Origin: Escherichia coli
GTDB taxonomy: Bacteria > Pseudomonadota > Gammaproteobacteria > Enterobacterales > Enterobacteriaceae
Length of the DNA stretch: 57,197 nt
Strand: one strand, 5' to 3'
Assembly: GCF_003334385.1 (NCBI RefSeq)
Contig: NZ_QOWN01000030.1
Position 1 is the first letter of the stretch; every line of letters begins with the position of its first letter. This document shows positions 54,901-57,146 of the stretch, piece by piece. A program made the position numbers.

Positions 54901-57146
54901 ATATCACCGTCGTCATTAGTGACGCCCTGGGAAGAGCAAAAACCAATCATCTTTTCAGCTTTCAGTTTGATGGCCAGTTGAGTGGCAATCTCTTCCGAGG
55001 TCAGGTTAAAGCTCTCGCCAGTGACTGAAACAGCGACCGGCCCCATTAGCACTATTGCACCGCTGTCCAGTTGACGATGGATCGCGTCTTCATCAATCCG
55101 CCGGATACGCCCGCTATGGCAGTAATCCACGCCGTCATCGACGCCCAGCGGCTGGGCAATAATAAAATTGCCACTGACGACGTTGATATGCGCGCCCTGC
55201 AGCGGCGTGTTATTGAGACTCATCGACAGGCGAGCAGTAATATCCAGTTGCAATGTTCCCGCAGCCTGCTTCACCAGTTCCAGTGTTTTGGCGTCGGTCA
55301 CACGTATATTCTTGTGATACAGCGGTTCGTGGTGATGCGCAGCCAGATTTGCGTCGATCTGCGGACGTGCGCCATAGACCACCACCAGACGGATGCCGAG
55401 GCTGTGCAACAACCCGATATCATTAACGATACTGGAGAAATTCTCATGCTCAATGGCTTCACCGCCGAGCATGATGACAAACGTTTTTCCCCGGTGGGTA
55501 TTGATATAGGGAACCGAATGGCGGAATCCCTCGACCAACTCGGTTTTACGTTCCTTTACCACGGCACACCTCTTTGCATGATTATTCGAAATTAGTGTAT
55601 TTTTATTCTGTTTTTTCGCAGGGTGCAAGTGTAAATTTTATGCGAGAGCGACTTTTTTATCAGTAATGCCGTGAATATAAAAAGAATGTTTACCGTTTAT
55701 TAGATGACAGATTATGCGTCTTTCGCTAAAGTTTCCGGTCAAATTAGTCGTTTACTTGTTACACAGCTTAGATTTCTTTTGCTCGGGAGAGGCATGTCAG
55801 GATCCAACACTGCAATCAGCCGTCGTCGTTTACTGCAAGGCGCGGGTGCCATGTGGCTATTGAGCGTAAGTCAGGTCAGTCTGGCTGCGGTCAGCCAGGT
55901 CGTGGCGGTGCGCGTCTGGCCTGCGTCCAGCTACACCCGCGTGACGGTGGAATCAAATCGTCAGCTGAAATATAAGCAGTTCGCGTTGAGTAACCCTGAA
56001 CGCGTGGTGGTGGATATCGAAGATGTAAACCTGAACTCGGTACTCAAGGGGATGGCGGCACAAATTCGTGCAGACGACCCGTTCATCAAGTCGGCGCGCG
56101 TCGGGCAATTTGACCCGCAAACCGTACGGATGGTTTTTGAATTAAAGCAAAACGTAAAACCGCAGCTGTTTGCCCTTGCGCCGGTCGCCGGGTTTAAAGA
56201 GCGTCTGGTGATGGACCTCTATCCGGCCAATGCACAGGATATGCAGGACCCGCTGCTGGCGCTGCTGGAGGATTACAACAAAGGCGACCTCGAAAAGCAG
56301 GTGCCGCCAGCGCAAAGTGGTCCACAACCGGGTAAAGCAGGGCGCGATCGTCCGATTGTCATTATGCTTGACCCTGGCCACGGTGGCGAAGACTCCGGTG
56401 CGGTGGGGAAATACAAAACGCGCGAAAAAGATGTGGTATTGCAAATAGCTCGCCGTTTGCGCTCTCTGATCGAGAAAGAGGGCAATATGAAGGTGTACAT
56501 GACGCGCAATGAAGACATCTTCATTCCATTGCAAGTGCGCGTAGCAAAAGCCCAGAAACAGCGTGCTGACCTGTTTGTCTCTATCCATGCCGACGCCTTT
56601 ACCAGTCGTCAGCCGAGCGGTTCCTCTGTGTTTGCGCTCTCAACCAAAGGTGCAACCAGTACTGCGGCAAAATATCTGGCACAAACCCAGAACGCCTCGG
56701 ACTTGATTGGTGGCGTGAGCAAAAGCGGTGACCGCTATGTCGACCACACCATGTTCGATATGGTACAGTCGCTGACCATTGCCGACAGCCTGAAGTTTGG
56801 TAAAGCGGTACTGAATAAGCTCGGTAAAATCAACAAGCTGCATAAAAATCAAGTTGAACAGGCCGGGTTTGCCGTACTAAAGGCACCAGATATTCCCTCC
56901 ATTCTGGTCGAAACGGCGTTTATCAGTAACGTTGAGGAAGAGCGTAAACTGAAAACGGCGACTTTCCAGCAGGAAGTTGCGGAGTCTATTCTTGCGGGGA
57001 TTAAAGCGTATTTTGCCGATGGGGCGACGTTGGCGAGAAGGGGATGATAAAAAGGCGCTGAATGGCGCTTTTTTATGGGAGACCAGAAACAAAAAAACAC
57101 CCGTTAGGGTGTTCAATAATTGGTTGCGGGGGCCGGATTTGAACCG

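Follow-up and report, generated by a model that had tools for sequence, protein, structure and literature searches.

Tandem ARG boxes forming the probable ArgR operator over the putative core promoter of argA in an Escherichia coli strain

The argA gene encodes the enzyme of the first committed step of arginine synthesis, and its repression by ArgR through tandem ARG boxes has been textbook knowledge since the late 1980s or early 1990s. ArgR operators consist of two 18-bp boxes separated by a spacer of 3 bp, or rarely 2, and are bound cooperatively, on one face of the helix, by a single arginine-loaded hexamer that bends the DNA; those of biosynthetic genes overlap the -10 and/or the -35 element, so that binding of repressor and polymerase is mutually exclusive (PMC6245113, PMC4381063, PMC6640053). 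For argA itself, transcriptional control by ArgR is on record (PMC1413537), and a promoter-GFP reporter that ArgR represses turns constitutive once argR is removed (PMC3658269). In vivo, IPOD-HR finds the known ArgR sites 5' of the gene strongly occupied; the signal drops in arginine-poor medium and vanishes when argR is deleted (PMC8282354).

Several described operators resemble the argA site. The carAB P2 operator of E. coli and Salmonella likewise contains a pair of ARG boxes with a 3-bp gap, close to the start codon (10 bp), and there the binding of ArgR and that of RNA polymerase exclude each other (PMC6245113). The carAB boxes, however, overlap the -35 of P2 and lie downstream of the pyrimidine-controlled P1, whereas the argA boxes overlap a putative -10 and transcription start site (TSS), and no tandem promoter is evident at argA. 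The argECBH operator of K-12 is also built of two 18-bp boxes with a 3-bp spacer, and one of them, TATGAATAAAAATACACT, has 15 consecutive nucleotides (GAATAAAAATACACT) in common with argA box 1. Whereas the argA site serves one gene at a distance of 10 bp, this operator is shared by the divergent argE and argCBH promoters and lies 88 bp from the argC start codon; with the matrix described below it scores 28.8 bits in a leave-one-out run, versus 25.2 bits for argA. At argF in K-12, a small ORF named argL ('putative translational regulatory protein') overlaps the gene start just downstream of the ARG boxes; at argA, the K-12 annotation has no comparable small ORF.

The stretch analysed here (the window, 57,197 nucleotides of contig NZ_QOWN01000030.1) is from E. 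coli: a 501-bp query around the site matches 5,426 of 5,426 complete E. coli genomes, with argA and amiC annotated. The 230-bp region between these two genes is AT-rich (36% GC) and identical, base for base, to that of K-12 MG1655. The MG1655 argA operator (b2818) has the same boxes, the same 3-bp spacer and the same 10 bp to the GTG, with no difference at all. The site is therefore the already-known K-12 operator, the same element in another E. coli strain. A sequence-only reading of the window had pointed to a single ARG-box-like palindrome around the argA start codon, which was said to fit arginine repression, and had proposed a weight-matrix scan for ArgR boxes as well as a comparison with the K-12 operator and with orthologous promoters.

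We trained a symmetric position weight matrix (PWM) of 18 columns on the best box pair of nine K-12 control regions (argECBH, argI, argF, argD, argG, argR, carAB, artJ and hisJ), argA being excluded. A training run restricted to 21-bp spacing misplaced the argR site and was discarded; the final training allowed a spacer of 2 or 3 bp (20 or 21 bp spacing) and recovered the box pair of the argR operator. For argECBH, argI, argF, argD, argR and carAB, the pairs picked are reportedly those tabulated earlier (Maas 1994; Charlier 1992). Those for artJ and hisJ differ between training runs and may not be the published sites; the argA result is unaffected by them, since an untrained consensus matrix also ranks the argA pair first in the window. 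For conservation, one genome per species was sampled, which gave 80 loci encoding ArgA at 89 to 99% identity, and 81 sequences in the alignment. The genera include Escherichia, Citrobacter, Salmonella, Enterobacter, Klebsiella, Raoultella, Kosakonia, Kluyvera, Buttiauxella, Cedecea, Erwinia and others. The elements of the argA control region, all on the minus strand and listed from upstream to downstream, are the following:

55634..55639, minus strand: conserved A/T tract AAAATT, 80 to 99% conserved while its flanks are not, at -46..-41 from the putative TSS
55623..55628, minus strand: putative -35 hexamer TTGCAC; all 81 sequences share TTGC (55628..55625), while the 11 bases that follow vary strongly
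55594..55611, minus strand: ARG box 1 (upstream), ACAGAATAAAAATACACT; 13.2 bits, rank 3 of 57,180 positions, two mismatches to the consensus
55600..55605, minus strand: putative -10 TAAAAA, inside box 1 and 17 bp downstream of TTGC, invariant in 81/81; AAAAAT at 55599-55604 is an alternative
55591..55593, minus strand: spacer AAT, exactly 3 bp in 81/81 sequences; the putative TSS falls within it, at about 55592-55593
55573..55590, minus strand: ARG box 2 (proximal to the start codon), TTCGAATAATCATGCAAA; 12.0 bits, rank 6 of 57,180 positions, three mismatches to the consensus
55569..55572, minus strand: Shine-Dalgarno GAGG, 6 nt 5' of the GTG, largely conserved; its last G (55569) is invariant in 81/81
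54231..55562, minus strand: argA coding sequence (K-12 b2818), N-acetylglutamate synthase, 443 aa, GTG start at 55562..55560

On the argA strand, the order 5' of the start is thus ...AAAATTTACAC TTGCAC CCTGCGAAAAA ACAGAATAAAAATACACT AAT TTCGAATAATCATGCAAA GAGGTGTGCC GTG. The start codon had been placed one nucleotide too far upstream, at 55563: the minus-strand frame opened there fails as an argA start, and the translation of 54234-55562, which runs 443 aa without a stop, moves it to the GTG at 55562..55560.

The two boxes form the tandem layout of an ArgR operator, 18+3+18 bp with 21 bp from centre to centre (consensus WNTGAATWWWWATTCANW). With the PWM trained without argA, the pair at 55573-55611 scores 25.18 bits and is the top pair of the 57-kb window, the runner-up reaching 15.93. 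Dinucleotide-preserving shuffles of the whole window attained 25.18 bits, anywhere in the sequence, in 1 case out of 300; when only the 230-bp intergenic region was shuffled, none of 20,000 did, and the highest shuffle scored 20.9. Known operators, scored by leave-one-out, range from 20.1 to 35.8 bits with a median of 28.6, so that the proposed scan for ArgR boxes leaves the argA pair (25.2 bits) inside the range of known operators as well as at the top of the window. No third ARG box flanks the pair on either side, the in-phase positions scoring -21 to -40 bits. Neither argA box has the consensus T at position 3. The second-best pair of the window, at 14537-14575 (15.9 bits), combines one good and one poor box in the A+T-rich yqeK region, which is accessory DNA, present in 3,609 of 5,426 E. 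coli genomes; this pair is probably an effect of composition.

The string flagged by the sequence-only reading, tgcatgattattcgaaat (plus strand, 55575-55592), does exist, and its reverse complement matches the quoted 17-mer consensus TNTGAATWWWWATTCAN with three mismatches (55575-55590, minus strand, TTCGAATAATCATGCA). It was, however, 2 nt out of register, and the partner box had been missed: most of the string is taken in by box 2, at 55573-55590, which is the weaker half of the pair (12.0 versus 13.2 bits with the PWM trained without argA). Nor does the palindrome span the GTG, as box 2 ends 10 bp upstream of the start codon. In the remainder of the flagged span, 55612-55700, no further ARG boxes were found; it contains the putative -35, the A-rich tract and a non-conserved spacer.

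As a test, the consensus search for single boxes was dropped, because its matches were no better than chance: 41 sites of the window match as well as the flagged string does, where 31.5 +/- 6.6 are expected from dinucleotide-preserving shuffles of the window, and 12 of 100 shuffles reach 41. The pair-aware PWM replaced it. The same search nonetheless gave a second match 21 bp away, at 55594-55611. The best single ARG-like box of the window, AGGGCATTATCATTCATT (46743-46760, 15.75 bits), lies within the coding sequence of ptrA (pitrilysin); it stands alone, with no second box at a spacing of 20 or 21 bp, and presumably matches by chance. Given that the best-scoring single box sits without a partner in coding DNA, a single ARG-like box is not diagnostic, and the 21-bp pair is.

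Comparison among orthologues shows that the double box is the best pair upstream of argA in all 80 promoters (21.4 to 29.9 bits), which span the sampled genera of the Enterobacteriaceae plus Erwinia; the 3-bp spacer never varies, and the operator ends 8 to 14 bp before the start codon. Together with the identity to MG1655, this agrees with what the sequence-only reading would have expected of a true operator. Column entropy averages 0.34 bits over the operator, against 1.74 at -120..-75 of the intergenic region and 1.32 in the 11 bases upstream of box 1. The variable columns of the boxes are chiefly positions 2 and 17 (N in the consensus), position 18 and the central W positions, and column entropy is anticorrelated with the information content of the PWM (Spearman -0.56, p = 4e-4). 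Of the 13 core positions of box 1 (4-16, GAATAAAAATACA), 12 are the same in all 81 sequences, and the remaining one, position 5, departs in a single sequence. In box 2, positions 3-8, 12-13 and 15-16 are invariant in the 81 sequences, position 9 differs in 1 of 81, and position 14 alternates between G and the consensus T. Two non-consensus bases are themselves invariant (81/81 each), the C at position 3 of box 2 and the A at position 14 of box 1. This suggests a constraint from an overlapping -10 and TSS function, or a tuning of affinity. Conservation is confounded at both boxes, with the -10 element at box 1 and with the 5' leader at box 2.

Within E. coli, the commonest polymorphism is a C to A change at position 17 of box 1, an N position of the consensus. 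A disrupted argA operator was encountered in 1 of 5,426 E. coli genomes, that of strain Z0117EC0098 (NZ_CP098195.1): box 1 is one A short (AAAAA to AAAA), a 9-bp duplication, TTCGAATAA, separates the boxes, and no pair at 21-bp spacing exceeds 4.3 bits. Either the strain is a natural operator-constitutive mutant, or its assembly is in error here.

The same alignment outlines a likely promoter. In 76 of 81 sequences, TTGC stands exactly 20 nt from the core of box 1, while the bases in between vary freely; because an invariant motif held at a fixed distance across variable bases is expected when it is tied to a -10, we read TTGC as the -35. The putative -10 lies 17 bp away under box 1, and the operator, 10 bp upstream of the GTG, covers it. 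With a -10 at 55605..55600, the TSS would fall near 55593/55592, within the spacer that separates the boxes. The argA leader would then be about 30 nt long and would carry box 2 and the GAGG Shine-Dalgarno; a scan of 55300-56000 against Rfam returned no RNA family. The AAAATT tract is at the position of a proximal UP-element subsite and may have an UP-like function, to judge from its placement and conservation. The supplements of Ettwiller 2016 list no coordinates near argA, and in those of Kim 2012, b2818 appears only in the orthologue table.

How else could such a site be explained? The conserved block might consist of core promoter, leader and ribosome-binding region and nothing else, its likeness to ARG boxes being incidental to A+T richness. 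Box 1 over the putative -10 and box 2 in the putative leader could indeed be kept by purifying selection on those functions, and a single box with three mismatches is not above chance. However, the score of the pair was unmatched in 20,000 composition-matched shuffles, the 21-bp phasing is exact in 81 of 81 sequences, and the variability of individual positions follows an ArgR matrix learnt from other genes. Moreover, in vivo occupancy and repression depend on argR, so that published data already contradict this explanation, which we find scarcely credible. Equally hard to believe is that the flagged palindrome alone is the operator, bound as one box. By itself it scores 12.0 bits, and it was the only element named earlier, but its neighbour surpasses it in both score (13.2 bits) and conservation, ArgR hexamers are reported to bind pairs of boxes cooperatively (PMC6245113, PMC4381063, PMC6640053), and single boxes of equal or better score arise by chance in coding DNA, as at 46743 in ptrA.

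The position of the promoter may also be questioned. In a generic promoter scan, the sole sigma-70-like match on the argA strand (9/12) is CTGATA-N17-TAAAAT, further upstream (55663..55635). If this were the active promoter, transcription would start near 55628, which would put the ARG boxes at roughly +19 to +57 and make ArgR a roadblock to elongation instead of keeping polymerase off the promoter. There is partial conservation in the TAAAAT region but none in the CTGATA -35 and the spacer (20 to 60% identity), whereas TTGC at 55625-55628 is invariant and at a fixed distance; the conserved AAAATT fits an UP-like tract of the downstream promoter equally well. Furthermore, ArgR is reportedly a poor roadblock, and strongly repressed biosynthetic operators overlap the -10 and -35 (PMC6640053). 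We therefore consider it unlikely, owing to its non-conserved -35, that CTGATA-N17-TAAAAT is the real argA promoter, and retain the promoter formed by TTGC and the -10 under box 1.

Taken together, the segment 55573-55611 is almost certainly the ArgR operator of E. coli argA, composed of two ARG boxes; the exact bases contacted by ArgR are assigned provisionally, from the PWM, the conservation and published box sequences. Arginine repression of argA via this site, which the sequence-only reading had anticipated, is supported by the matrix, by conservation and by the published argR-dependent occupancy and repression, but that account was incomplete, the operator being a pair and not a single palindrome. 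A literature search with the exact sequences of the argA boxes yielded nothing relevant, its one match being a primer in a strain-engineering paper.

A mechanism can be proposed for this operator. When L-arginine is abundant, one arginine-loaded ArgR hexamer would bind both boxes cooperatively and bend the DNA, the 3-bp spacer putting the boxes on the same face of the helix, 21 bp apart. With box 1 over the putative -10, the putative TSS in the spacer, and box 2 over the first 20 nt or so of a leader of about 30 nt, ArgR would cover -18..+20 and block open-complex formation. Because the operator overlaps the putative core promoter, ArgR and RNA polymerase should be unable to occupy it together, and initiation at argA would be blocked. 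As arginine falls, ArgR would leave and the argA promoter would fire.

On the amiC side of the intergenic region, a second conserved island is found on the plus strand (55683-55732), made of GAATGTTTACCGTTTATTA (55683-55701) followed by a sigma-70-like ATGACA-N17-TAAAGT (55704-55732). It is near-invariant in the 81 species, which 55640-55680 is not, and probably represents the amiC promoter together with a regulator site upstream of it. The GTAAA-like repeats of the island are not at the canonical N5 spacing of Cpx sites; the Cpx system is reported to activate amiC (PMC9604234). The longest amiC ORF, from 55704, would encode 447 aa, whereas the annotated K-12 start is the ATG at 55794, giving 417 aa with a twin-arginine signal. 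The extra 90 nt take in some columns of poor conservation, which favours the annotated start. At the end of the window, a tRNA-Met gene (anticodon CAT; 57121-57197, minus strand) reaches the last base; it is presumably one of the metZWV initiator tRNA genes located downstream of amiC on the K-12 map.

It is conceivable, although we think it very unlikely, that ArgR bound at argA also affects the divergent amiC promoter, via the extended wrapped complex (about 93 bp) described by ChIP-exo. The -35 of the putative amiC promoter (55704-55732) begins 93 bp from the outer edge of box 1. If true, such an effect would tie arginine status to the expression of a septal cell-wall amidase.

As a discovery, the argA operator carries little weight. 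What is gained is that one box becomes two, in the right register and with the right coordinate for the start codon, and that a phylogenetic footprint of the argA control region now places its likely -35, -10 and TSS. The -10 and TSS function may also be what holds the non-consensus bases in place, a view better supported than an influence on amiC; the operator would then be dual-coded, and deliberately sub-optimal as a binding site for ArgR.
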